A stretch of DNA of 64,000 nucleotides from Vicinamibacterales bacterium (GTDB taxonomy: Bacteria; Acidobacteriota; Vicinamibacteria; Vicinamibacterales; UBA2999): assembly GCA_035537775.1 (NCBI GenBank), contig DATLLQ010000259.1:5937-69936 (forward strand), read 5' to 3'. Every line of letters begins with the position of its first letter. Position 1 is the stretch's first letter. Both the position numbers and the translations under genes were made by a program. Below, piece by piece: positions 47,682 to 62,925 of the stretch. Below the pieces are notes generated by a model. The model worked only from the letters and a program-made list of their open reading frames with translations, did no database searches and was not told where the DNA came from.

Positions 47682-49268
47682 ATGCAGCCGCTCAGGCACT
47701 TCCTCATCGCTGCCTCGGTCCTCGGTTGTTTGGTGCCGGCGCCGGCACGCGCTGCCGGGGCCGCTCCGCTCGTTGACGCTGCCGAACGGGGCAGCCTCAC
47801 CGAGGTTCGCGCGCTCCTCAAGCAGGGCACGGACGTCAACACCGCGCGTGTGGACGGGGTCACTCCGCTGCACGCGGCGGTTTACGCCGACCGCCTCGAG
47901 GTCACGGCCGCGCTCCTGACGGCCGGCGCAAAGGCGACGGCGGCCGATCGCTACGGCGTCACCCCTCTGTATCTCGCCGCCGTCAACGGCAACGCCGACA
48001 TCATCCGGCGGCTGCTCGATGCGGGCGCCGATCCCAACGGAGTCGATGCGGGCGGCGAAACGGTCCTGATGACGGCGGCGCGCAGCGGGCGTCCGGCGGC
48101 AGTGCGCGCGCTCATCGAACGAGGCGCGCGCGTGGACGCGCGCGAGCCGGAGTTTCAGCAGACGGCGTTGATGATCGCGGCGCGCGAAGATCGCGGCGAA
48201 GCGGTCGGCGTCCTGCTCGCGGCCGGAGCGTCGCCGAACGTTCAGACCCGCAAAGGACCGACTCCGGCATTCGTTCCGCCGTGCAAGGGCACGGGCTGCG
48301 GGTCGGAAGGCGTCGGCATCAATCGCGGCGGCCTTCCCGATCGCGGACGCCGCGCCGAAGCCAAAGGCGGCATGACCCCGCTGTTGTACGCGGCGCGCGA
48401 CGGACGGCTGGACACGGCGCGTCGTCTCCTCGAGGCGGGCGCGGACATCGAGCTCCCGGAAGCGAACGGCATTCGTCCGTTGCTGATGGCCGCGCTCAAC
48501 AACCAGCTCGATGTCGCGCGCCTGCTCGTCTCGAAGGGCGCGAGCATCAACGGCGACGACTTCTGGGGACGTACACCGCTCTGGGCCGCTGTCGAGTACC
48601 GCAATCTCGACATGAACAACGTCGAGCAGGACGACCCGAAAGACAACGGCGTCGATCGCGCACCGGTCCTCGAGTTCATCAAGGAGCTGATTGCCGCCGG
48701 CGCCAACGTCAACGCCCGCACCCGCGAGCTGCCGCCGGCCCGCCGCTGGCTCTACTCGCTCAACGACGTGTCGTGGGTCGACTTCACCGGACAGACGCCG
48801 TTCCTCCGCGCGGCGCTTTCGGGCGACACGACGACGATGAAGCTGCTGGTGCAGCATGGGGCGGACCCCAATCTGCCGACGCTGGCCGGCACGACGCCGC
48901 TGATGGCTGCCGCCGGCGTGAATTGGACGGTGCAGCAGACCTACACGGAGTCGCCGCAGGCGCGCATCGACGCCGTCAACCTGTGCCTCGAGCTAGGCGC
49001 TGAGGTGAACGCCGCGAATTCGATGGGGCTGACGGCGCTCCTCGGCGCAGCGAATCGCGGCTCCAACGAGATCATCGAGATCCTCGTGAAGCGCGGCGCG
49101 CGGCTCGACATCAAGGACAAGGAAGGACGGACCCCACTGCGCTGGGCGGAAGGCGTGTTTCTCGCCTCCGTTGGCGCCGAGAGCAAGCCGGCCACGATCG
49201 CGCTGCTCGAACGTCTCCTGGCTGAGAAGAATCAACTCCCAACGCCCAATTCCCAACTTCCAAAATGA
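47682..49268 (+). CDS. secreted ankyrin-repeat protein (528 aa), module copy 2
   Basis: Signal MQPLRHFLIAASVLGCLVPAPARAAG. Ankyrin units collinear with the protein at 28778-30280. Confidence 0.85.
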   Translation: MQPLRHFLIAASVLGCLVPAPARAAGAAPLVDAAERGSLTEVRALLKQGTDVNTARVDGVTPLHAAVYADRLEVTAALLTAGAKATAADRYGVTPLYLAAVNGNADIIRRLLDAGADPNGVDAGGETVLMTAARSGRPAAVRALIERGARVDAREPEFQQTALMIAAREDRGEAVGVLLAAGASPNVQTRKGPTPAFVPPCKGTGCGSEGVGINRGGLPDRGRRAEAKGGMTPLLYAARDGRLDTARRLLEAGADIELPEANGIRPLLMAALNNQLDVARLLVSKGASINGDDFWGRTPLWAAVEYRNLDMNNVEQDDPKDNGVDRAPVLEFIKELIAAGANVNARTRELPPARRWLYSLNDVSWVDFTGQTPFLRAALSGDTTTMKLLVQHGADPNLPTLAGTTPLMAAAGVNWTVQQTYTESPQARIDAVNLCLELGAEVNAANSMGLTALLGAANRGSNEIIEILVKRGARLDIKDKEGRTPLRWAEGVFLASVGAESKPATIALLERLLAEKNQLPTPNSQLPK

Positions 49269-51580
49269 AACCGGTAGCTCTCGCGACGTTTCTGCTGCTC
49301 GCAGTCGCGCTTGTCCGCGTGGACACTCAGACGGCGCAGTCTCCCGCGCCGCGTGCGGCGACCAGTGAGAAAGCAGTCATCGACCGCTACTGTGCGACGT
49401 GCCACAACCAGCGCATGCGCGCCGGCAATCTCGCACTGGACAGCCTCGACGTGAGCGCGGCGGGACGCGATCCGCAGACGTGGGAGAAAGTCGTGCGCAA
49501 GGTGCGCACCGGCATGATGCCGCCAAGCGGCGTCGCGCGGCCCGATCGCGCGACGCTCGACGGCTTCGCCGCCTCGATCGAGACGGCGATCGACCGCGCG
49601 ACCGCGAGCGCACCCAACCCTGGTGCGCCGGCGCTTCATCGTCTGAACCGCGCGGAGTACGGCAACGCCGTACGCGATCTGCTCGACCTGCCGATTGACG
49701 CCGCCAGGCTGCTGCCCGCGGACGACTCGAGCGGCGAAGGGTTCGACAACATGGCGAGCACGCTGAGCGTCTCGCCGGCGCTGATGCAGGCGTACGTGAC
49801 GGCCGCGGCAAGGATCAGCCGCCTCGCGATCGGCGATCCGACGATCAGCGCCGAGCTCACGACCTACACTCCGCCGCGTGGCCTGGCTCAGACGTCGCAC
49901 CGCGAAGGGATGCCCCTGGGCACGCGTGGCGGCCTGGTCGTGCAGCATGTCTTTCCGCTCGACGCCGAGTACGAATTCAGAATCGGCCGTGCGGGCGGCG
50001 GGCTCTTCGGACTCTCGCCAGTCGGCGGCGGCGACCCGGTCGAAGTCACCCTTAACGGCGAACGCCTCCGCGTTCTCGAAGGAAACGCACGCGGCGCGCT
50101 CCGCCTGAAGATTCCCGCCGGCCCACAGACGATCGGCGTCGCCGTCGTTCGCCGGTCGAATCCGCGCGGCGTGGACGACATGTACGCCGAGCTTGCCGGC
50201 ACAGCGGGCGTGAACAGTCTGGGGATCAACGGGCCGTTCAATCCGACCGGACCGGGCGACACGGCAACCCGTCGAAAGATCCTGGTGTGTCGACCACAGG
50301 CGGCAGCAGATGAGCCCGCCTGCGCTCGTCGAGTGCTTGCCGCGTTAGCAACACGGGCGTTCCGCCGGCCGATCGCGGAGAAGGACCCGGCGATCGACAC
50401 GCTGATGGGATTCTTCGAATCTGGCCGTAAGCTGCGTGGCTTCGAAACCGGCATCCAGTACGCGCTGGCCCGGGTGCTGGTCGACCCACAGTTCATCTTC
50501 CGCTTCGAACACGTGCCCGCCTCCGCCAAGGCTCCGGCGGGGCAAGCCCGGAGCGTCTACCGCATCAGCGGCCTCGAGCTCGCCTCGCGGCTCTCTTTCT
50601 TTCTCTGGAGCAGCATCCCGGACGACGAGCTCCTTCGCGTCGCGGCTTCGGGCAAGCTCGACGACCCGGCCGTGCTCGAACAGCAGGCGCGCCGGATGCT
50701 TGCCGACAAACGGGCCGACGCGCTGATCGACAACCTCGCCGGCCAGTGGCTGCTGCTGCGACAGCTTGACGACGTGAGACCCGGCACGAAGGAGTTCGAC
50801 GGCGCGCTGCGCTACGCCTTCCATCGCGAGACCGAGCTGCTCTTCGAAACGATCGTGCGAGAGGACCGCAGCATCCTCGACCTGATCGACGCCGACTACA
50901 CGTTCGTCGACGAACGGCTCGCACGCCACTACGGGATCCCCGACGTTCGCGGCAGCCTCTTCCGTCGCGTGACGCTGACCGACCCCGCACGGCGCGGGCT
51001 GCTTGGCCACGGCAGTTTCCTCACCGCGACGTCCGCGGCCAACCGTACATCGCCGGTCAAGCGCGGCAAGTGGGTGCTCGAGAACCTGCTGGGTGCCCCG
51101 GTGCCGCTGCCACCGCCTGGGGTGGAGACGAACCTGACCGAGACGACAACCGGCGCGGCGCCCACGTCGGTGCGGCAGCGGCTGGAGCGGCACCGCGCGA
51201 GCCCCAACTGCGCGTCGTGTCACGCGGTGATGGACCCGGTCGGGTTCTCGCTCGAACCGTTCGATTTGATCGGCAAGTGGCGCGAGTCCGACGGCGGCGT
51301 CCCGGTGAACGCCGCGGGCCGTCTGGCAGATGGAACCGCGCTCGACGGCCCGGCGAGCCTGCGAAAAGCCCTGCTGGACCGCCGGGACGCGGTTGCGGCG
51401 ACCGCCACGGAAAAGCTGCTAACCTACGCCCTGGGCCGGCGCGTTGAGTATTTCGACATGCCAGCCGTGCGCGCGGTCGTTCGCGACGCGGGCCGCACGA
51501 ACTACCGCTTCTCGTCGCTCGTCGCCGGCATCGTCAAGAGCGTGCCGTTCCAGATGAAGCGCTACGAGGGAGAGCCGTGA
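49265..51580 (+). CDS. DUF1592-type multidomain protein with cytochrome-c motif, module copy 2
   Basis: ATGA overlap with the ankyrin stop. Heme-c site CATCHNQR. Later CASCH. Collinear with 31641-34082. Confidence 0.85.
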   Translation: MKPVALATFLLLAVALVRVDTQTAQSPAPRAATSEKAVIDRYCATCHNQRMRAGNLALDSLDVSAAGRDPQTWEKVVRKVRTGMMPPSGVARPDRATLDGFAASIETAIDRATASAPNPGAPALHRLNRAEYGNAVRDLLDLPIDAARLLPADDSSGEGFDNMASTLSVSPALMQAYVTAAARISRLAIGDPTISAELTTYTPPRGLAQTSHREGMPLGTRGGLVVQHVFPLDAEYEFRIGRAGGGLFGLSPVGGGDPVEVTLNGERLRVLEGNARGALRLKIPAGPQTIGVAVVRRSNPRGVDDMYAELAGTAGVNSLGINGPFNPTGPGDTATRRKILVCRPQAAADEPACARRVLAALATRAFRRPIAEKDPAIDTLMGFFESGRKLRGFETGIQYALARVLVDPQFIFRFEHVPASAKAPAGQARSVYRISGLELASRLSFFLWSSIPDDELLRVAASGKLDDPAVLEQQARRMLADKRADALIDNLAGQWLLLRQLDDVRPGTKEFDGALRYAFHRETELLFETIVREDRSILDLIDADYTFVDERLARHYGIPDVRGSLFRRVTLTDPARRGLLGHGSFLTATSAANRTSPVKRGKWVLENLLGAPVPLPPPGVETNLTETTTGAAPTSVRQRLERHRASPNCASCHAVMDPVGFSLEPFDLIGKWRESDGGVPVNAAGRLADGTALDGPASLRKALLDRRDAVAATATEKLLTYALGRRVEYFDMPAVRAVVRDAGRTNYRFSSLVAGIVKSVPFQMKRYEGEP

Positions 51581-52917
51581 TGTTCATTACGAAAAAGCAT
51601 CTTTCGCGGCGGACCTTCCTGCACGGCGCCGGCGTCACCCTGGCGCTGCCGCTCCTCGAGTCGATGGTGCCCGCGGGCACCGCGCTCGCGCAGACCGCGG
51701 CCAATCCGAGGACCCGGCTGTGCGGCATCTACATCCCGCACGGCGCGACGATGGACAAGTGGACGCCGGCGGACGTTGGGACCGGGTTCCAGTTCTCGGA
51801 GATCCTGCAGCCGCTCGAGCCGTTCAGAAACTACGTCAACGTGATCAGCGACCTCGCCCACGCGCCGGTGGCGCCGTGGACCGGCGAGGACACCGGCGGC
51901 GCTGAAAACCACGTCAGGGCGGCGGCCGTGTTCCTGAGCGGCGCGCATCCGGTGAAGAAGAACGAGGCGTTCGCCGGCGCCAGCATCGATCAGATCGCGG
52001 CGCAGCACGTTGGACAGGACACACCGCTCCCGTCGATCGAGCTGTCAATGGAGCCGGTCAACCTCACCTGCGGCGACGCGGGATTCACCTGTGCCTATCG
52101 CAACACGCTGTCATGGAAGACGGCGACTGTCCCGCTGCCGATGGAGAACAATCCGCAGCTTGTCTTCGAGCGGCTGTTCGGCGACGGCAGCACCGATGCG
52201 CAGCGCCAGGAACGGCGCAGCCAGGCGCGCAGCCTGCTCGACTCGATCCGCGATCAGGTACCCTCGCTCGAAAAGAACCTCCCGGCAGGCGATCGCCGGC
52301 GGCTGCGCGAGTATCTCGACGAGGTCCGCGAGATCGAGCGGCGCGTAAAGCTGTTCGACGACACGCTGTCGCGCAATCTCGATCTGCCGGATGCGCCCAC
52401 AGGGGTCCCGACCGAGTTCGAAGCGCACATCAAGCTGATGTTCGACCTGCAGGTGCTTGCCTACAAGACGCAGATCACCCGCATCTCGACGCTGATGCTG
52501 GCACGGGAGAACAGCGGCGCCACCTATCCCGCGACCGGCATACGCGAGGGCTTCCACAACGCGTCGCATCACTCGAACGATCGCAAGAACATGGATCAGT
52601 TCGCGGTAATCAACCGCTATCACATCAAGATGCTGGGCTACTTCCTCGAACGGCTGCAGGCGACGCCGGACGGCGACGGCAGCCTGCTCGACCACTCGAT
52701 GGTGCTGTACGGCAGCAGCCTGAGCGACGGCAACGAGCACAACTTCGACCCGCTGCCGGTCGTGCTCGTGGGCGGCGGGTCTGGACGGCTGAAGGGCAAT
52801 CGACACCTGCGGCATGCGCCGCACACGCCGATGTCGAACCTGCTGCTCGCAGTTCTCCACAAGGTGGGAGCCCAGGTCGACAAGATCGGCGATAGCACCG
52901 AACCGCTCGCCATCTGA
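51580..52917 (+). CDS. DUF1552 family protein with twin-arginine signal, module copy 2
   Basis: ATG 51580 (TGATG junction, GGGAGAG RBS; GTG 51577 is an alternative). [29 protein letters not shown]. Confidence 0.85.
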   Translation: [445 protein letters not shown]

Positions 52918-54689: not shown

Positions 54690-57392
54690 GTGTCGAACCA
54701 TCCCTATTCGCAGCTTTTTGATCTGAGCCCGTTCCCGGCGGTGGTCAGCCGCCTCGACGACTATCGTGTGCTCGCCGTCAATCTCAGCGCGGCCGAGCTG
54801 GTCGGCGTGTCGCCCGCGGACGTCATCGGCCAGCCAGTCAGCGGCTACTACGTCGATCCGGCGCAGCGGCTCGAACTGATCGAGCGAGTGCGGCGCGACG
54901 GCAGGGCGGACAACGTCCGGTTGCACATCAGGCGAGCCAAAGGCGAGCCGCTGTGGGTGCTGGCTGCGATCCGCGTGATCGACTGGAACGGCGTGCCCGC
55001 GGCGGTCACCGTGTTCCACGACATCAGCGAACAGCTGGCGGCGGAATCGTCGCTCCGGGCGAGCGAACGGCGCCTGGCGGCGCAGAGCGATGCGTTGACG
55101 GATCTCACGACACGCTATACCAGCCCGGGTGAGGGCTTCGACGCGCGGTTGCGGGGCATCCTGCCGCTGGCGGCTGGCGCGCTGCGGGTGGAGCGGCTGA
55201 GCCTGTGGCGATTCGCAGACCAGGGTTCGACGATCCGGTGCGACGGGCTCTATCGCGCGAGCACCAACAGCCACGACTCCGGGAGCGTTCTGCACCGGCT
55301 CGACGCGCCAGCCTACTTCGCCGCTATCGAACGCGAACGGGTCGTGGAGGCGCACGACGCACAGAACGATCCGCGAACGTCCGGGTTTACCGCCGGCTAC
55401 CTGATCCCGAACCGTATCGGCGCGATGCTCGACGTGCCGCTCCAGCACGACAACGCCACCATCGGGGTCTTGTGCGCCGAGCATGTCGGCGGCCCACGCG
55501 CCTGGACGATCGACGAGCAGAACTTCGCCGTGGCGGTCAGCAACCTGATCGTCGTGGCGCTCGTGGAAGAGGAGCGCCGTCACGCGCTCGCGCGTCTGGC
55601 CGAGAGCGAAGCGCGCGCACGGTTGATCGTCGACACGGCGCACGATGCCTTCATCGGGATCGATTCGGACGGCAGGGTCGTCGCGTGGAACGCGCAGGCT
55701 GAGGCGACCTTCGGCTGGGCGAGCGGAGAGGTCGTCGGCCGCAGCCTGGCCGAGACGATCGTGCCGCCGGCCTTCCGGGATGCGCATAACGCCGGCATGC
55801 GCCGTTTCCACGAAACGGGCGAGGCGCCAGTCGTCAACCAGCGCCTCGAACTGACCGCGCTGCATCGATCCGGGCGCGAGTTTCCGATCGAGCTCACGAT
55901 TACGTCGCCGATCAGCGTCGAAGATGGCTATTTCTTTGCGGCGTTTCTGAGGGACATTTCCGACCGGCGCGAACGAGATGAGGAGCTGCGCACTGCCCGT
56001 GATACCGCGGAAGCGGCAACCCGCGCGAAGAGCGAGTTTCTGGCGAACATGAGCCACGAGCTGAGAACGCCGTTGAACGGCGTGCTCGGCTACGCCCAGC
56101 TCCTGCAGCGCGATCGGACGATGAACGCGGCGCAACGGGAAGCCCTGGACGCCATCGGCCGATGCGGGTCGCAACTGCTGGACCTGATCAACGACGTCCT
56201 CGACCTGTCGAAGATCGAGGCCGGTCGTCTCGACATCGACGAGGGACCGACCGATCTCACGCAGCTGCTGACCGACCTGAGGTACGTGGTTGCCGAAACC
56301 GCGGCGCACAAAGGCCTGACACTGACGATGACGCTGGATGCAGATGTCCCCCGTGCGGTCATCGTCGACGGACGGCATCTTCGCCAGGTGCTCCTGAATC
56401 TCCTCGGCAATGCCGTCAAGTTCACGAGGGCGGGCGACGTGCGCCTGCGCGTCGGTGCCGCCGGCGGACGCCTGGTGTTCGAGGTCGTCGACACCGGCCC
56501 GGGCATCGAGCCCGAGGCGATTACGGAGATCTTCGCGGCATTCTCGCAAACAAAAACCGGCGCCGAGGCGGGCGGCACGGGGCTCGGGCTGACCATCTCA
56601 GATCACCTCATCACGAAGATGGGCGGAGCGCTGAAGGTCGAGAGCGCGCTCGGCAGCGGCAGCCGCTTTTCGTTCAGCCTGCCGCTCGTCGAGACGCGAA
56701 TCGACACCGCGGGTCAAAGCACCGACCCTGCCCTGCCGGCGCTCGATGCCCGGCTCGCACCAGGCCAGATGCTGACCGCGCTGGTCGTGGACGACAGCGC
56801 GGCGAACAGGCGGATTCTCGCGAGCCTCCTCGAGAGCGCGGGCGCGCAGGTCACCGCCGCAACGGGCGGGCTCGAGGCCATCGAGCTGGCACGCACGCAT
56901 CAGCCGCAGATCATCTTCATGGACCTGAAGATGCCGGATGTCGACGGGCTCGAGGCCACGCGACGGCTGGCGCAGGATCCCGCGACGTCGGCAATCCCAG
57001 TGGTTGCCGTCACGGCCAGCGCTCTGGGGGACGCGCGTGCGAAGGCCCGCGCCGCGGGCTGTATCGACTATCTGTCAAAGCCCATTCGCGCCCAGGAGCT
57101 GTTCGGCGTGCTCAGAACGCACCTTGGCGCGCGATTCGTCGGCGGCACCGATCTGCCGGCCGCCGATACACCCGGCCTTGCCGTCGTCCGCCGGCTGGAC
57201 GTCGCCGCGACGCTGCGGAACGCCGTCGCCGTCGGCGATGTCACCGAGATTCATGCCCTGGCTGAATCGCTGATGCGCGGTGGTCCCGCGGAGTCGGCAC
57301 TGGGTGAGCGCATCAACAGGCTGGTCGTTGAATTCGACTTCGCAGGGCTCGCACAGCTTGGTGATTCGCTCGCCGGATCAGGTCAGCCGTGA
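54690..57392 (+). CDS. hybrid sensor histidine kinase (PAS-GAF-PAS-HisKA-HATPase-REC plus ~90-aa C-terminal tail)
   Basis: H-box FLANMSHELRTPLNG. N/G boxes (LLGNAVKFT, DTGPGI, GTGLGLTIS). REC domain (VVDDSAANRR...FMDLKMPDVDG...YLSKP). PAS and GAF regions recognisable. Confidence 0.88.
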   Translation: MSNHPYSQLFDLSPFPAVVSRLDDYRVLAVNLSAAELVGVSPADVIGQPVSGYYVDPAQRLELIERVRRDGRADNVRLHIRRAKGEPLWVLAAIRVIDWNGVPAAVTVFHDISEQLAAESSLRASERRLAAQSDALTDLTTRYTSPGEGFDARLRGILPLAAGALRVERLSLWRFADQGSTIRCDGLYRASTNSHDSGSVLHRLDAPAYFAAIERERVVEAHDAQNDPRTSGFTAGYLIPNRIGAMLDVPLQHDNATIGVLCAEHVGGPRAWTIDEQNFAVAVSNLIVVALVEEERRHALARLAESEARARLIVDTAHDAFIGIDSDGRVVAWNAQAEATFGWASGEVVGRSLAETIVPPAFRDAHNAGMRRFHETGEAPVVNQRLELTALHRSGREFPIELTITSPISVEDGYFFAAFLRDISDRRERDEELRTARDTAEAATRAKSEFLANMSHELRTPLNGVLGYAQLLQRDRTMNAAQREALDAIGRCGSQLLDLINDVLDLSKIEAGRLDIDEGPTDLTQLLTDLRYVVAETAAHKGLTLTMTLDADVPRAVIVDGRHLRQVLLNLLGNAVKFTRAGDVRLRVGAAGGRLVFEVVDTGPGIEPEAITEIFAAFSQTKTGAEAGGTGLGLTISDHLITKMGGALKVESALGSGSRFSFSLPLVETRIDTAGQSTDPALPALDARLAPGQMLTALVVDDSAANRRILASLLESAGAQVTAATGGLEAIELARTHQPQIIFMDLKMPDVDGLEATRRLAQDPATSAIPVVAVTASALGDARAKARAAGCIDYLSKPIRAQELFGVLRTHLGARFVGGTDLPAADTPGLAVVRRLDVAATLRNAVAVGDVTEIHALAESLMRGGPAESALGERINRLVVEFDFAGLAQLGDSLAGSGQP

Positions 57393-59497
57393 ACACCGCC
57401 CGCGCGGATGATCCGCAGATCCTGCTGGTCGACGACAACCCCACGAACCTGCAAGTGCTCTATCAGACGCTTGCGGGCGGCGGCTACCGTCTGCTGGCGG
57501 CACGAAGCGGAAAAGACGCCATCACGATCGCCCAACGCGTCGTTCCGGATCTGATTCTTCTCGACGTCATGATGCCGGGAATGGATGGGTTCGAAACGTG
57601 TGCGCACCTGAAGGCCGATCCGCGCACGCGCGATTCGGCCATCGTCTTTCTCTCGGCGCTGACCGCCGCGGACGACAAGGTGCGTGGCCTCGAGCTCGGC
57701 GCGGTCGATTTCGTGAACAAGCCGTTCCAGGCGGAGGAAGTGCTGGCGCGCGTCAGGACACACCTGACGATCCGCACGCTGCAGAAAGAGCTGCGGCGGC
57801 GCAACGAAGAACTCGAGCTCGAGCTGCTCGTCGCGCAGGAGCTGCTGCGTGAGGCGCGCGACCGGACTGAGGGTGTGCTGGCCGGCGACAGCCCCGTCGC
57901 CGCCCGCCTTCGCCGAGACATCGACGAGGCAGCAGCGAGCGACGAGCCGCTCCTCATCAGCGGCCCGACGGGCAGCGATCATGAAGCGGTGGCGCGAGCC
58001 GTTCACCACCAGTCCGCCCGCGGGTCGCGCGCGATGATCAGCGCGAATTGCCTCGCCGTGGTCCCCGACGCGTCGCCTTCCTCGCGCGTCACAGGCTCGG
58101 GATCCGACATCTTCGAAAAGCTCCGCCTGGCCCACTCGGGCACCTTGTACCTGGATGGCGTTCAGCATCTCCCGCATGATGTGCAACAGACGCTCGCCGC
58201 GCGTCTCGCGCCGGCCGACGGACCGCGTGGAGACGACGCGCTCGACGTGCGTGTGATCGTGGCAACGACGCGGGACGTGGATGAGGAAGTGGCCGCCGGG
58301 CGACTGGCGCCCGCTCTCCGCCGCGCCTTCCGCCGGACGATTGACCTGCCGCCGCTGCGCACCAGGCTCGAGGACCTGCCCGCCGTTGCGCCACTCATTC
58401 TCCGACGCCAGGCCGAACAGGCGGGACGCACGGTTCCGATCATCTCGGACGAATCGCTGCAGCGCATGCAGCGCTACCGCTGGCCCGGCAATCTGCGGGA
58501 GCTGCGCAATGTGATCGGCTCAGCGCTGGCCGTGAGCGCCGGTCCGGTTCTGGAGATCGGCGAGCACCTGCTGAACAACGAAGTGCGCGTCGGCAGCTAC
58601 AACCTGATCGAGCGCATCGGCGCCGGGGGCATGGGTGAAGTCTGGCTCGCGCGGCACCAGCTGCTGGCGCGGCCGGCAGCCGTCAAGATCGTCCACGAAG
58701 CGGCGCTCGGCGTCGCCGAGAGCCCCTCGGCAGCGCGGCAGCGGTTCGCCCGCGAAGCCCATGTGACGGCCGAGCTGCAGTCGCCGCACACGGTGCAGCT
58801 GTACGACTTCGGCATCACCGATGCCGGCAGCTTCTACTACGTCATGGAGCGCCTGCGCGGCATCGATTTGCAGCGCATGGTGGAAAGCCATGGCCCGCTC
58901 CCGGCGGAGCGCGTGGTCTTTCTGTTGAAGCAGGCGTGTCTATCGCTCGCGGAAGCCCATTCACTGGGGCTCGTCCACCGCGACATCAAGCCTGGCAACC
59001 TGTTCGTCTGCCGGCTCGGCCAGCAGTTCGACTTCCTGAAGGTGCTCGATTTCGGCGTCGTATCGCGGCGAGGGCGCGGCGCGCGGGCGCCGCTCACCGA
59101 AGCCGGCCTCCTGCTGGGCACACCTGCCTATCTGGCGCCGGAGCTCGTGGGCCAGGACGCCTTCGATGCCCGGGTGGACATCTACTCGCTCGGCTGCGTC
59201 GCCTACTGGCTGCTGACCGGGCGGCCGCCCTTTGAGGGCGGCGACGCGATGTCAGTGCTGATGCAGCACTCGAGTGCAACGCCGCTCGCGCCGTCAGAGC
59301 TGGCGGAGAAGCCGGTTCCGAAAGATCTCGACGCCCTGGTTGTCGCCTGCCTCGGCAAGGACCCTCGAGAGCGGCCCGCGGACGCGGAGCAGCTCGCCGC
59401 CCGCCTCGACAGCCTGTCGGTGGCCGGCTGGTGGACGCAGCAGAAGGCGCGTGCCTGGTGGGCGCTGCACGTGCCCGAGCTCCTTGATCCGGCATGA
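57389..59497 (+). CDS. response-regulator receiver / degenerate sigma54-type AAA+ domain / Ser-Thr protein kinase fusion
   Basis: REC (LLVDDNPTNL...LLDVMMPGMDG...FVNKPF). NtrC-like AAA+ body with WPGNLRELRN, but Walker A is GPTGSDHE and there is no GAFTGA. Kinase domain GAGGMGEVW, AAVKIV, HRDIKPGNL, DFGVV, YLAPE. Confidence 0.85.
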   Translation: MNTARADDPQILLVDDNPTNLQVLYQTLAGGGYRLLAARSGKDAITIAQRVVPDLILLDVMMPGMDGFETCAHLKADPRTRDSAIVFLSALTAADDKVRGLELGAVDFVNKPFQAEEVLARVRTHLTIRTLQKELRRRNEELELELLVAQELLREARDRTEGVLAGDSPVAARLRRDIDEAAASDEPLLISGPTGSDHEAVARAVHHQSARGSRAMISANCLAVVPDASPSSRVTGSGSDIFEKLRLAHSGTLYLDGVQHLPHDVQQTLAARLAPADGPRGDDALDVRVIVATTRDVDEEVAAGRLAPALRRAFRRTIDLPPLRTRLEDLPAVAPLILRRQAEQAGRTVPIISDESLQRMQRYRWPGNLRELRNVIGSALAVSAGPVLEIGEHLLNNEVRVGSYNLIERIGAGGMGEVWLARHQLLARPAAVKIVHEAALGVAESPSAARQRFAREAHVTAELQSPHTVQLYDFGITDAGSFYYVMERLRGIDLQRMVESHGPLPAERVVFLLKQACLSLAEAHSLGLVHRDIKPGNLFVCRLGQQFDFLKVLDFGVVSRRGRGARAPLTEAGLLLGTPAYLAPELVGQDAFDARVDIYSLGCVAYWLLTGRPPFEGGDAMSVLMQHSSATPLAPSELAEKPVPKDLDALVVACLGKDPRERPADAEQLAARLDSLSVAGWWTQQKARAWWALHVPELLDPA

Positions 59498-60753
59498 CGC
59501 GCGAGCTCGAGCCGCCTCTCTCGTACACACTCACCCGCCGGCGGCTTCTCCAGGCGGGCGGCCTTCTGCTGGTCTCGCCGTTTCTCGCCCTGCGGGAAGC
59601 CAGCGCGGGCGCACCGGCGCCTCGCCTCACGAGGTTCGAGCTGATCCCGATACGCGCGACCTCGCGGACGGTCTGGCTCGTCGTTCGTCTTCACACCGAC
59701 GCCGGCCTCACGGGACTCGGCGAGGCATCCGACGCGTTCGGTTTTGCCAACACGACAGCAGCAAACGCCGACACGATGCGCGCACGGCTGCAGACATTCT
59801 TCGAGCTCGTCCGCGGCGGCTCGCCGCTTGACGTCGAACGCTATCGTCAGCGCGGAATCCCGATGGTGAAAGGCGATCTCGTCTCGGCAACAGCCTTCTC
59901 CGCCATCGAACAGGCGATGTGGGATCTCGCCGGCAAGGCGCTCAATGTGCCGACGCATGTGCTGTTCGGCGGCAAGGTGCGCGCCGTGCTGCCCGTGTAC
60001 GCCAACATCAACCGCGCCACGAATCCGAGGACGCCGGAGGGATTCGCGGGCGCCGCGCGGCGCGCGGTGAAGGACGGCTTCCGTTCCATCAAGGCCGCTC
60101 CCTGGGACGGTTTTCCGGCTACGGGGTCACCGGCGAAGGTCATCGACGCGGCGGTTGACGCTGGAATCGCCGCGGTCGTGGCGATGCGTGAGGCAGCCGG
60201 AACGGACATCGACATCATGGTGGACTGCCACAGCTTCTTCGATGTCGAACGCGCAGTCGCTGTCGCCCGTCGTCTCGAACCGCAGCGCCTGCGATGGTAC
60301 GAAGAACCGGTCGCGCCGGAGCGCGTGGACGAGACGGTCGCCATCAAGGGGCGGATCCAGCAGCCGATGGCCGGCGGAGAGGTGCTCTTCGGCGTCGCCG
60401 GCTTCGCGCCGCTCTATCAGCGTCGCGCCGTTGACGTCATCATGCCGGACGTGAAGCACTGCGGCGGACTGCTCGAGCTCACTCGCATCGCCGCCGCAGC
60501 AGAGGCAGCGGGCGTGATGGTCTCCCCGCACAATCCGAGCGGCCCCGTCTCGACGGCTGCGAGTGTGCAGGTCGCAGCTGGGATGGGGAACTTCAACTAT
60601 CTCGAGCTGCAATACGGCGAGGTCGACTGGCGCGGCGAGCTGCTCGCGCCCATCGAGCGATTCGTCAACGGCCAGATTGCCGTTCCGGATCGTCCCGGGT
60701 TCGGCATCGCGCTGAATGAACAGGCCATTCGACGTCGCGCGCTCGCCCTCTGA
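59494..60753 (+). CDS. enolase-superfamily (mandelate racemase/muconate lactonizing, dehydratase-like) protein with twin-arginine signal
   Basis: ATGA overlap. TRRRLLQAGGLLLVSPFLAL. MR/MLE pattern (GLGEASD..., IMVDCHS, RWYEEP, DVIMPDVKHCGG). Confidence 0.82.
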   Translation: MTRELEPPLSYTLTRRRLLQAGGLLLVSPFLALREASAGAPAPRLTRFELIPIRATSRTVWLVVRLHTDAGLTGLGEASDAFGFANTTAANADTMRARLQTFFELVRGGSPLDVERYRQRGIPMVKGDLVSATAFSAIEQAMWDLAGKALNVPTHVLFGGKVRAVLPVYANINRATNPRTPEGFAGAARRAVKDGFRSIKAAPWDGFPATGSPAKVIDAAVDAGIAAVVAMREAAGTDIDIMVDCHSFFDVERAVAVARRLEPQRLRWYEEPVAPERVDETVAIKGRIQQPMAGGEVLFGVAGFAPLYQRRAVDVIMPDVKHCGGLLELTRIAAAAEAAGVMVSPHNPSGPVSTAASVQVAAGMGNFNYLELQYGEVDWRGELLAPIERFVNGQIAVPDRPGFGIALNEQAIRRRALAL

Positions 60754-60772: not shown

Positions 60773-61828
60773 CTACGGCGCTCCAGCCGATTTGCCACCG
60801 GATTCGACAATCCGGCGAGCAAGGTAGTTCACGACATCCGCGTCGGCGCGTACCGTCGTGAGATAGGCCGCACGGAGCACCTGCTCCCTGCCCTGGCGCA
60901 GCGCCTCGGTAATCCGCTCGCGCACGCCAGGCGTCGAAAGGTCACGCTGACCGGCCGGCTCCTTCGACACGACGTAGACGATCGTGAGCACGCCGCCCTC
61001 GTTCACGACGCGCGCGGAGCCTGTCGTCGTGCTCAACACCGCCTTCTGCAGCAGTGGCGGCGCCTGCTTGATCCTCGACAACGGCACGAGACCCAGATCG
61101 CCGCCGCGCGGGGCCGTTTCCGGATCCTCGGAGAAGTCCCTGGCGAGATCGGCGAACGGCGTCCCCGCCTTCAGCTTTTCCATCAGCATGGACACCTTCG
61201 CCGCCGCCGCCTGCGGCGTGGTGGCGTCGTCACCAGTGCGGTTGGCGACCTGCGCGCCGCGAACCGGAGTCACGATGATCTGCGCGAGGCGGAAGGCCTC
61301 TTCAGGAAGGTTGAACTGCGACCGGTTCGCGTTGAAGAAGTCGGTCACTTCCTGATCGGTCACCGTCACTTTCGAGCTGACCTCGCGCTCGAGGATCTTG
61401 CGTCCCAGCAGCTCACGCCGGAGGCCGTCGCGCATGTCGGCGGTCGTCAGATTGCGCTTCGCCAGCTCCTCTTGAAAGGCCTGCTCGTTCGGAATGTTCT
61501 TCTTCGCCTCGGCGAACGCGGCCTCGACCTCACTGTCGGGAAGCTCGATCTTCAGCGCCGCGCCTTTGGCGAACAGGATCTCCTCGACGATCAGGTCTTC
61601 GATGACGGCGAGCTTGGCCATCAGGGCTTCCTGATCGGACAGCGACTGCGAGCCGTCGCGCACGCGCCGGAACTCCTTCTCGACGCGGTCCCTCGTAATC
61701 GTGCGACCGTCGACGACGGCCCAGGTGTCGGCAGGTACTGCCGCCGGCGCCGGGGACGAACCCGAACGGCAGGCCGGAGCCAGCCACAACGTCGCCAGGG
61801 CGACGGCAACAAAGCGATATCGATGCAT
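60773..61828 (-). CDS. SurA-like periplasmic chaperone / parvulin-type peptidyl-prolyl isomerase
   Basis: Signal or lipoprotein N-terminus (LWLAPAC). SurA_N-like helical region. Parvulin-like segment ...FADLARDFSEDPETAPRGGDLGLV. Confidence 0.75.
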   Translation of the reverse strand: MHRYRFVAVALATLWLAPACRSGSSPAPAAVPADTWAVVDGRTITRDRVEKEFRRVRDGSQSLSDQEALMAKLAVIEDLIVEEILFAKGAALKIELPDSEVEAAFAEAKKNIPNEQAFQEELAKRNLTTADMRDGLRRELLGRKILEREVSSKVTVTDQEVTDFFNANRSQFNLPEEAFRLAQIIVTPVRGAQVANRTGDDATTPQAAAAKVSMLMEKLKAGTPFADLARDFSEDPETAPRGGDLGLVPLSRIKQAPPLLQKAVLSTTTGSARVVNEGGVLTIVYVVSKEPAGQRDLSTPGVRERITEALRQGREQVLRAAYLTTVRADADVVNYLARRIVESGGKSAGAP

Positions 61829-61834
61829 GTCAGT

Positions 61835-61840
61835 AGAATA
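61835..61840 (-). promoter_or_regulatory. -10-like TATTCT, 6 nt upstream of ATG 61828 (leaderless candidate)
   Basis: On the minus strand TATTCT-actgac-ATG. No SD. Confidence 0.35.
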
Positions 61841-61880
61841 TCGCCCCTATGCCGTTCACGGCCGGCATTCCTCCACGGAT

Positions 61881-62384
61881 ATGAACGCACGGGTGGTCGT
61901 CAACGATCGGATGCAGCGGAACTACGTCTACGTCCGCACCGAGCCGGCCGGCCGCAACTTCGCGCCCCAGTTTCAGCCGCAGTTGACGCCACGCGAGATG
62001 TTGGCGCTCGGCGTGTTCGGTGGAAAGTACATGACCGACTGCCGAAAGGAGTTCCCGGCAAGCTGGTACACGCGCGCGAAGCTCTGCTCGACCCATCACG
62101 ATCCGAAGCTGAACTACTTCGGCGTGAATGCATCCCAGTCGCTGGACACCTGGTGGCACAAGGGCTGGATCCGGCCGCAGGATCCGCGCGGGTGGTTTCA
62201 GTGGTACTGCCGCTACTACATGGGCCGACGCTCATCGGACGACGAGCGCCAGATTCGACGATGGCGGGCGATCGCGAGGCACGTCGCGCAGATCATCAGC
62301 CATTGCGAGCGGGGCGACCTCGACTGCAGGCGTCGGCAGCGTCAGGCCGTGCTGCACTGGGCGTATGACAGCCGCAAGATCTAA
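61881..62384 (+). CDS. conserved hypothetical protein (W/R/Y-rich motif GWFQWYCRYYMGRR)
   Basis: Clear coding-looking ORF. Family not recognised. Start uncertain (ATG 61881 preferred; ATG 61827 would overlap the divergent start codon). Confidence 0.5.
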   Translation: MNARVVVNDRMQRNYVYVRTEPAGRNFAPQFQPQLTPREMLALGVFGGKYMTDCRKEFPASWYTRAKLCSTHHDPKLNYFGVNASQSLDTWWHKGWIRPQDPRGWFQWYCRYYMGRRSSDDERQIRRWRAIARHVAQIISHCERGDLDCRRRQRQAVLHWAYDSRKI

Positions 62385-62391
62385 TGCTGAC

Positions 62392-62416
62392 GGTCCGCCT
62401 GAAGGCGGACACTACG
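62392..62416 (+). repeat. REP-like element, consensus copy (GGTCCGCCTGAAGGCGGACACTACG)
   Basis: 7-bp stem GTCCGCC/GGCGGAC with TGAA loop and an ACTACG tail. The last G is the first base of GTG 62416. Confidence 0.7.
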
Positions 62417-62925
62417 TGCGTGTCGGGATCTCCACATGCCTGCTCGGCGAAGAGGTCCGCTATGACGGCGGCCACAAGCGCACGCAGTACCTCATCGATG
62501 CGTTCGGTAGTTCGGTGGAATGGGTGCCGGTGTGTCCGGAGGTCGAGGCAGGGTTTGGCACACCGCGCGAGGCGATGCAGCTGTCGCGCGTCAACGGTGT
62601 CATCAGGCTCGTCACGGTGACGACCGCGCGCGACGTGACAGATCAGATGGGCGAACTCATTCGACGGCGCATGCAGGAGCTGCAGTTGAAGGGCCTGAGC
62701 GGCTACATCCTGAAGGCGAACTCACCGAGCTGCGGCCTTGCCGTCAAGGCCTTCGACGACCGCGGCATCGCCAGCGAACCTGGAAGAGGCGTGTTCGCCG
62801 AGGCGCTGACCCGCGAGTTTCCGGATCTGCCAATCGAAGACGAGGGCCGGCTGTCCGACCCTCGCCTGCTTGCTGAATTCGTGGAGCGCGTGTTCGCGTA
62901 TCGGCGGCGCAGTGGGTCCGCCTGA
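62416..62925 (+). CDS. DUF523 family protein (YbbK/TudS-like Cys-rich)
   Basis: Start GTG 62416. VRVGISTCLLGEEVRYDGGHKR...VPVCPEVEAGFGTPRE is typical of DUF523. Confidence 0.7.
   Translation: MRVGISTCLLGEEVRYDGGHKRTQYLIDAFGSSVEWVPVCPEVEAGFGTPREAMQLSRVNGVIRLVTVTTARDVTDQMGELIRRRMQELQLKGLSGYILKANSPSCGLAVKAFDDRGIASEPGRGVFAEALTREFPDLPIEDEGRLSDPRLLAEFVERVFAYRRRSGSA

Follow-up and report, generated by a model that had tools for sequence, protein, structure and literature searches.

A receiver, a degenerate sigma-54-type AAA+ module and a Hanks-type kinase fused in one Vicinamibacterales protein: a putative response regulator with Ser/Thr phosphorylation output

Receiver-controlled AAA+ modules and Hanks-type Ser/Thr kinases are both well known in bacterial signalling. 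In the enhancer-binding proteins (EBPs) NtrC1 and DctD the way in which the AAA+ module assembles depends on the receiver and a linker helix. The kinase PknB is activated by dimerisation and trans-autophosphorylates, and in the usual account of cross-talk between two-component systems and Hanks-type kinases the response regulators are substrates of the kinases. A bacterial AAA+ module joined to a protein-kinase-like (Ser kinase) domain occurs in PrkA/YeaG, which differs from the protein described here in that its AAA+ and kinase families are unrelated, and it has neither a receiver nor homology to Sigma54_activat. Some EBP homologues, namely VpsR, NtrX and the NtrC proteins of Caulobacter and Rhodobacter, lack the GAFTGA motif and act independently of sigma-54, and VpsR has also lost residues required for ATPase-driven activation (PMC6158489; bioRxiv 10.1101/2023.06.06.543975). 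Here we analyse a stretch of 64,000 nucleotides from a Vicinamibacterales bacterium (NCBI GenBank assembly GCA_035537775.1, contig DATLLQ010000259.1, positions 5,937 to 69,936 of the forward strand), hereafter called the window, which contains a gene fusing a receiver, a degenerate sigma-54-type AAA+ module and a Ser/Thr kinase.

The fusion gene (57389..59497, on the plus strand like every window feature given below up to nt 62384) starts with GTG and encodes 702 amino acids (aa). Its start overlaps the stop codon of the upstream gene (GTGA) and its stop codon overlaps the start of the gene that follows (ATGA). Annotation with Pfam profiles reveals four domains, each above its curated cut-off and with E-values far beyond chance: Response_reg (PF00072, aa 11-123, E 9.6e-27), Sigma54_activat (PF00158, aa 165-307, E 1.5e-17, 64 bits against a cut-off of 20.2), AAA_lid_14 (PF25601, aa 324-390, E 6.6e-15, 55 bits) and Pkinase (PF00069, aa 404-668, E 2.5e-43). 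No helix-turn-helix (HTH) family, including a C-terminal HTH_8/Fis domain, was detected by Pfam in the 702-aa protein at E up to 0.1. Among NCBIfam models, aa 10-390 align with NtrX, AtoC, NtrC and ZraR, all far under the equivalog cut-offs, and aa 403-677 align with PknB-type kinases. An AlphaFold2 model computed from a 64-sequence alignment reaches a predicted local distance difference test (pLDDT) of 91.5 and a predicted template-modelling score (pTM) of 0.75, low confidence being limited to the L1 region (aa 225-240) and the activation loop (aa 560-575). In Foldseek searches the N-terminal 400 aa were matched best by the inactive receiver and AAA+ dimer of NtrC1 (1ny5, E 7e-25) and also by NtrX, NtrC4 and VpsR; no solved chain found by Foldseek spans the whole protein. 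An earlier note, made from the sequence alone, had proposed a single open reading frame (ORF) of 702 codons in three parts, with an NtrC-type sigma-54 activator AAA+ module in the middle and a complete Hanks-type kinase in place of the HTH. The ORF call and the Pfam profiles confirm the three-part layout; Pfam, phmmer searches of the PDB and Foldseek all agree on the middle region, and the Pkinase match at aa 404-668, with no HTH in Pfam, bears out the exchange of the output domain.

The receiver domain (aa 11-123, 57419..57757) has the acidic pocket (D15/D16), the acceptor Asp (D59, nt 57563-57565, just where the earlier note had placed it), the Thr/Ser (S89) and the Lys (K111) by which two-component receivers are recognised. 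All five residues are invariant or nearly so among 40 aligned orthologues of 69-90% identity. From alpha5 of the receiver a continuous helix of 47 residues (aa 115-161, 57731..57871) leads to the AAA+ module in the AlphaFold2 model, with pLDDT > 86.

The alpha/beta subdomain of the AAA+ module, which is of Sigma54_activat type (aa 165-307, 57881..58309), matches ZraR, CapR, NtrX and NtrC4 in phmmer searches of the PDB (E 1e-25 to 2e-29), the best sequence match being ZraR (1ojl, E 2e-29). Direct translation and residue-level alignment to 1ojl reveal which motifs are degenerate. The Walker A motif reads GPTGSDHE where ZraR has GDSGTGKE; compared to the canonical GxxGxGKE the third Gly is replaced by Asp (D197) and the Lys by His (H198). 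The earlier note had read the motif correctly and placed it at nt 57959-57982, which is 3 nt off, its actual position being 57962..57985. Its Walker B reading, LDG for LDE at nt 58145-58159, stands as given: the motif LYLDG (58145..58159) lies within LYLDGV, aligned to LFLDEI of ZraR, with the catalytic Glu changed to Gly (G257). Likewise, the loss of the GAFTGA sigma-54 contact loop claimed there is seen both as a six-residue gap opposite GAFTGA in the ZraR alignment and in the family at large, in which 0 of 373 scanned proteins contain a GAFTGA-like string. The corresponding L1-loop region (aa 223-245, 58055..58123) is shortened and variable and is modelled with pLDDT 56-69. The lid subdomain (AAA_lid_14, aa 324-390, 58358..58558) retains the LRxRxxD and WPGNLRELRN motifs. 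In the orthologues the altered motifs are not drifting: G192, P193, G195, S196, D197, H198 and E199, as well as G257, are invariant or nearly so, and all 40 sequences keep the degenerate GP.GSDHE and the Walker B Gly along with every catalytic residue of receiver and kinase. Conservation by segment is 0.90 for the receiver, 0.90 for the linker helix, 0.84 for the lid, 0.83 for the kinase, and 0.83 and 0.74 for the two halves of the AAA+ alpha/beta subdomain, the former GAFTGA region being the least conserved segment (0.55). The AAA+ module is thus about as conserved as the kinase and variable only where GAFTGA used to be, a pattern which indicates that the non-catalytic module is under purifying selection except precisely at the sigma-54 contact site.

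The Hanks-type kinase domain (aa 404-668, 58598..59392) is predicted to be catalytically complete. Its motifs GAGGMGEVW (411), AAVK (K433), HRDIKPGN (530), DFG (554) and TPAYLAPE (578) are invariant in the orthologues, and together they supply the Gly-rich loop, the beta3 Lys (K433), the alphaC Glu (E456), the HRD triad (H530-R531-D532), the catalytic Asn (N537), the DFG (D554-F555-G556), the APE (E585) and the alphaF Asp that define Hanks kinases. K433, E456, H530, R531, D532, N537, D554, G556, E585 and D597 are invariant both in the orthologue alignment and in that of the wider family; T570, T578 and R662 are also invariant or nearly so in the orthologues. T570 (nt 59096-59098) is the candidate Thr of the activation loop. 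PknB is matched in sequence (E 2e-49) and in fold (1o6y, TM-score 0.88, root-mean-square deviation 2.3 by Foldseek). Behind the kinase follows a C-terminal tail (aa 671-702, 59399..59494), helical in the AlphaFold2 model, whose W..ARxWW signature, evident from the alignment, marks a kinase clade. The tail is common to kinases of this clade with membrane N-termini, and in Gemmatimonadota, Bryobacterales and Planctomycetota the clade is also found behind multi-transmembrane (multi-TM) N-termini.

A search of 5.8 billion proteins yielded at least 120 orthologue clusters at 69-100% identity, all with an identical Pfam set, from four independent sources (ENA, JGI, NCBI and Logan). Their lengths are 688-723 aa, save for two incomplete entries (637 and 670 aa), and the few named ones are Vicinamibacterales, except for one partial entry labelled Burkholderiaceae. 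The wider family was sought exhaustively with HMMER among 1.84 billion representatives clustered at 50% identity. About 30 clusters match the 702-aa query end to end at roughly 35-52% identity, about 50 further clusters align only from around aa 113-150 onwards, and the AAA+ module is present in 97 of the top 150. Sigma54_activat, AAA_lid_14 and Pkinase occur together in all 64 diverse full-length members scanned, which represent at least 64 clusters at 50% identity. The N-terminal inputs of these 64 are REC (38), PAS (11), GAF (7), MHYT (1) and protoglobin (1), which is the usual sensory repertoire of EBPs. A motif census of 81 representatives at 50% identity found the Walker A Lys in 9 (elsewhere Glu in 18, Gln in 14, Ala in 9, His in 8, and others), the Walker B Glu in 5 and the sensor II Arg in 32, while R326, D329, W365 and E371 of the lid are present in 81/81. 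Motif degeneracy is a family-wide trait. In a profile search 2109 clusters scored at E up to 1e-50 among 8000 scored, and the REC / Sigma54_activat / lid / Pkinase set is found in every one of the top 120. The few named members of the wider family come from Acidobacteriota, Planctomycetota and Myxococcota. The architecture is common in metagenomes, where hundreds to thousands of clusters from three or more phyla carry it, and is uncharacterised rather than rare; soil Acidobacteriota (Vicinamibacterales) are rich in members of the family.

Scans of GTDB genomes listed mostly generic receivers or kinases, and among the matches listed a few are true family loci (L001/L084, L005, L011 and L083). 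In L005 and L011, both from MFD long-read metagenome-assembled genomes, the orthologous genes are split by several frameshifts, i.e. in the opposite sense to a fusion; these are most likely errors of the assembly consensus and not pseudogenes. L024, L103 and L135 also matched over long stretches. L024 was rejected as a family member, as its full reading gives a REC-linker-Pkinase protein without AAA+, and L103 and L135 apparently do not share the architecture, judged from the lengths and ends of their ORFs alone. Larger relatives exist as well. According to Pfam, P0122 is a REC-AAA+-kinase protein followed by a second kinase domain, and P0287-P0289 (P0289 is named Planctomycetota) have the length (about 1100 aa) and Pfam set of P0122 and probably its layout. 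P0161 (named Myxococcota) and P0146, of about 2000 aa, contain Pkinase, AAA_16, GAF, Sigma54_activat, the lid and a C-terminal Pkinase of the same clade; P0148 and P0157 resemble them in length and AAA+ motifs. Such proteins amount to EBPs in which a kinase has taken the place of the HTH.

Compared to the described systems, the fusion protein is closest to EBPs such as NtrC1, DctD, NtrC4 and ZraR, with which it shares a full receiver, a helical linker between receiver and AAA+ module, the Sigma54_activat fold with AAA_lid_14, and an adjacent histidine kinase. It differs from them in the absence of the Walker A Lys, the Walker B Glu, GAFTGA and HTH_8/Fis, and in its C-terminal Hanks kinase. Since these four defining features of an EBP fail, the protein should be neither filed nor annotated as a sigma-54 activator or as a DNA-binding regulator. 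VpsR, NtrX and the alphaproteobacterial NtrC proteins have likewise lost the sigma-54 contact loop, but they keep the HTH and remain transcription factors, whereas the fusion protein has a kinase as output. With PknB-type kinases it has in common the complete catalytic core, the RD type, the activation-loop Thr and the GT motif; unlike them it possesses no transmembrane helix or PASTA sensor, but a cytoplasmic REC-AAA+ input and the W..ARxWW tail. The giant Myxococcota proteins P0161 and P0146 also place Sigma54_activat and the lid before a C-terminal kinase of the same clade, but they have an intact GxxGTGKE and an extra N-terminal kinase, in contrast to the compact REC-type protein of the window with its degenerate P-loop. 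Sorangium may have kinase-EBP fusions that end in HTH_8.

No description of REC/Sigma54_activat/Pkinase proteins was found in the literature searched, including kinase and kinome surveys, although an earlier mention is possible. The remark in the earlier note that this is not a described architecture thus holds for that literature, but not in the sense of a rarity, as the architecture is common in metagenomes, where it is annotated automatically under generic names such as 'protein kinase' or 'DNA-binding NtrC family response regulator'. The latter name is wrong here because there is no DNA-binding domain. What is new is the widespread wiring and the family-wide pseudo-ATPase; the domains and their logic are already known.

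The neighbour that matters most is a hybrid sensor histidine kinase of 900 aa (54690..57392; Pfam: PAS, GAF, PAS, HisKA, HATPase_c, REC and an 85-aa tail), which ends in the 4-nt overlap with the fusion gene. Of eight REC-type loci examined, seven have a histidine kinase directly beside the gene (the window, L081, L082, L083, L163, L166 and a JGI contig). The orthologues of 81% and 71% identity have different neighbours apart from a histidine kinase with this series of domains directly upstream, and an adjacent one is found even in the more distant L083 (47%) and L163 (48%); in L166 it is downstream of the gene. The two genes overlap by 4 nt in L163 as well and by 8 nt in the JGI contig. Beside GAF-type members there is no histidine kinase, in keeping with their being one-component versions. 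We infer that the translationally coupled upstream hybrid histidine kinase is the cognate partner, and phosphotransfer to D59 is predicted. In the loci examined only the histidine kinase is conserved beside the kinase gene; no conserved substrate or phosphatase gene was found there.

From these data we propose, with moderate confidence, that the protein is a response regulator with Ser/Thr phosphorylation output in which a dead AAA+ module serves as assembly scaffold. The adjacent PAS-GAF-PAS hybrid histidine kinase would phosphorylate D59 of the receiver, and the long conserved helix would couple the receiver to the NtrC1/DctD-like AAA+ module. This module keeps the fold and the lid and would have lost ATP hydrolysis and sigma-54 contact; since the Walker A Lys, the Walker B Glu and the contact loop are gone, it would act only as a passive scaffold whose dimeric or oligomeric state is altered by receiver phosphorylation. 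The junction between lid and kinase measures about 10 residues, so that assembly might juxtapose the kinases and lead to trans-autophosphorylation, probably at T570, and thereby to activation. By analogy with the biology of NtrC1/DctD and PknB, and given the 47-residue linker helix, it is reasonable to suppose that receiver phosphorylation gates AAA+ assembly and that assembly switches on the kinase. What the data show are the domain identities, the state of the motifs, the conservation, the adjacency of the histidine kinase and the family-wide pattern; phosphotransfer, a changing oligomeric state, the sense of the regulation, the site of autophosphorylation and any substrates are the parts of this scheme that we infer. 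More tentatively, and with rather less than even confidence, we suggest that proteins composed of a sensor, a dead AAA+ module and a Hanks kinase form a widespread unrecognised class, in which an EBP-derived ring devoid of ATPase activity is a signal-gated platform activating kinases by proximity; the gate would be phosphorylation of REC or the binding of a ligand to PAS or GAF.

Several observations speak against the scheme. The weak point is the phosphoryl route to D59, because the partner histidine kinase is a hybrid with an intact receiver of its own and no histidine phosphotransfer (HPt) domain was found. The candidate place for it was the C-terminal tail of 85-89 aa behind the kinase's own receiver (57123-57389), which is conserved and modelled by AlphaFold2 as four short helices with pLDDT about 90 over aa 21-85. 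Neither Pfam Hpt at E up to 10, nor a PDB profile search, nor Foldseek with the AlphaFold2 model detected an HPt in this tail, and its single His is Gln in distant orthologues, so that the tail was rejected as an HPt. An HPt may be encoded elsewhere in the genome. In addition, L167, a REC-type locus on a 7-kb contig, is without an adjacent histidine kinase, and simple heptad scoring of the linker helix gives a weak count of 7/15 a/d positions. Finally, a sister paralogue group of Vicinamibacterales (about 49% identity) has GPQGAGHE (G.G.GHE) and LYLEE, and for this reason a P-loop with His for Lys may still bind nucleotide in some members.

Among other explanations, the AAA+ module might be a rigid spacer or a constitutive dimerisation element, the receiver signalling directly via the helix with the oligomeric state unchanged. 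That the REC-linker-Pkinase protein of L024 manages without AAA+, and that kinases of the same clade bear very different N-termini, including multi-TM ones, is in line with this idea. We nevertheless regard it as unlikely: the AAA+/lid/kinase core is intact behind five types of input domain, the AAA+ module is roughly as conserved as the kinase, and the junction from lid to kinase is short and conserved, all of which argues that AAA+ is integral to the output. It seems improbable, too, that the AAA+ module is not dead but binds ATP, ADP or cyclic di-GMP (compare FleQ and VpsR) without hydrolysis, as a second, ligand-sensing input that gates assembly. D197 would put a negative side chain at the beta-phosphate site, as P-loop chemistry implies, the residue at the Lys position varies in the family (Glu 18, Gln 14, Ala 9, Lys 9, His 8), and the sensor II Arg is lost in 49/81. 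On the other side, the Gly framework of the P-loop is kept (G192 in 64/81, G195 in 70/81, the third Gly in 73/81), Vicinamibacterales clades repeatedly have His in place of the Lys, sister paralogues have LYLEE, and VpsR (7v2b) is among the fold matches. Moreover, orthologues show no variation at all in the degenerate motif, which points to a function under selection rather than to drift. Very improbable is a remaining action on transcription, with AAA+ docking to sigma-54 or RNA polymerase and the transcription machinery as substrate of the kinase; only homology to EBPs speaks for it, and the GAFTGA loop, a DNA-binding domain and the ATPase motifs are all missing and the L1 region is the least conserved of the protein. 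The earlier note had raised the possibility of a frameshift artefact. That a frameshift or faulty assembly has fused a kinase gene to the gene of an NtrC-type regulator has next to no probability and is rejected, as the ORF is uninterrupted, proteins of about 700 aa with the identical domain set form at least 120 independent clusters in the ENA, JGI, NCBI and Logan assemblies, the AAA+/lid/kinase core is common to 64/64 diverse representatives, and Pfam finds no HTH_8 remnant between lid and kinase.

If the response regulator with Ser/Thr output is real, the usual direction of cross-talk would be reversed within one polypeptide, with the receiver acting on the Ser/Thr kinase. The suggested wider class would link His-Asp phosphorelay directly to Ser/Thr phosphorylation and be a bacterial counterpart of the kinase activation by oligomerisation known from signalling complexes of eukaryotes. 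An AAA+ module kept after the loss of every catalytic and sigma-54 contact motif is also a natural test case for the role of pseudo-ATPases, be it in assembly, allostery or ligand sensing.

Further genes surround the pair. Upstream of it, two distant family members, L163 (2693-7004) and the contig of JGI sample 3300072015, carry a cluster of protoglobin-STAS, STAS, RsbW-like kinase and SpoIIE/PP2C genes, apparently a partner-switching module coupled to the two-component/kinase pair. In the window the gene that overlaps the stop of the fusion gene (59494-60753) encodes a member of the enolase superfamily (MR_MLE), nearest to galactonate/gluconate dehydratase models and far below their cut-offs; its N-terminus resembles a twin-arginine signal (TRRRLLQAGG...). 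It is absent from L081 and L082 and not conserved in other loci. Farther upstream (49265-52917), a 771-aa ORF and a DUF1552 (HXXSHH) gene with a Tat-like signal stand one behind the other and overlap by 4 nt; the L081 counterpart of the ORF carries PSCyt/PSD (planctomycete cytochrome-like) domains. Downstream, a Trp/Arg-rich ORF of 227 aa (61701-62384; …GWFQWYCRYYMGRR…), without a Pfam or NCBIfam family, lies just upstream of a 2-thiouracil-desulfurase-like gene, the domain being located in the ORF at 62128-62925.

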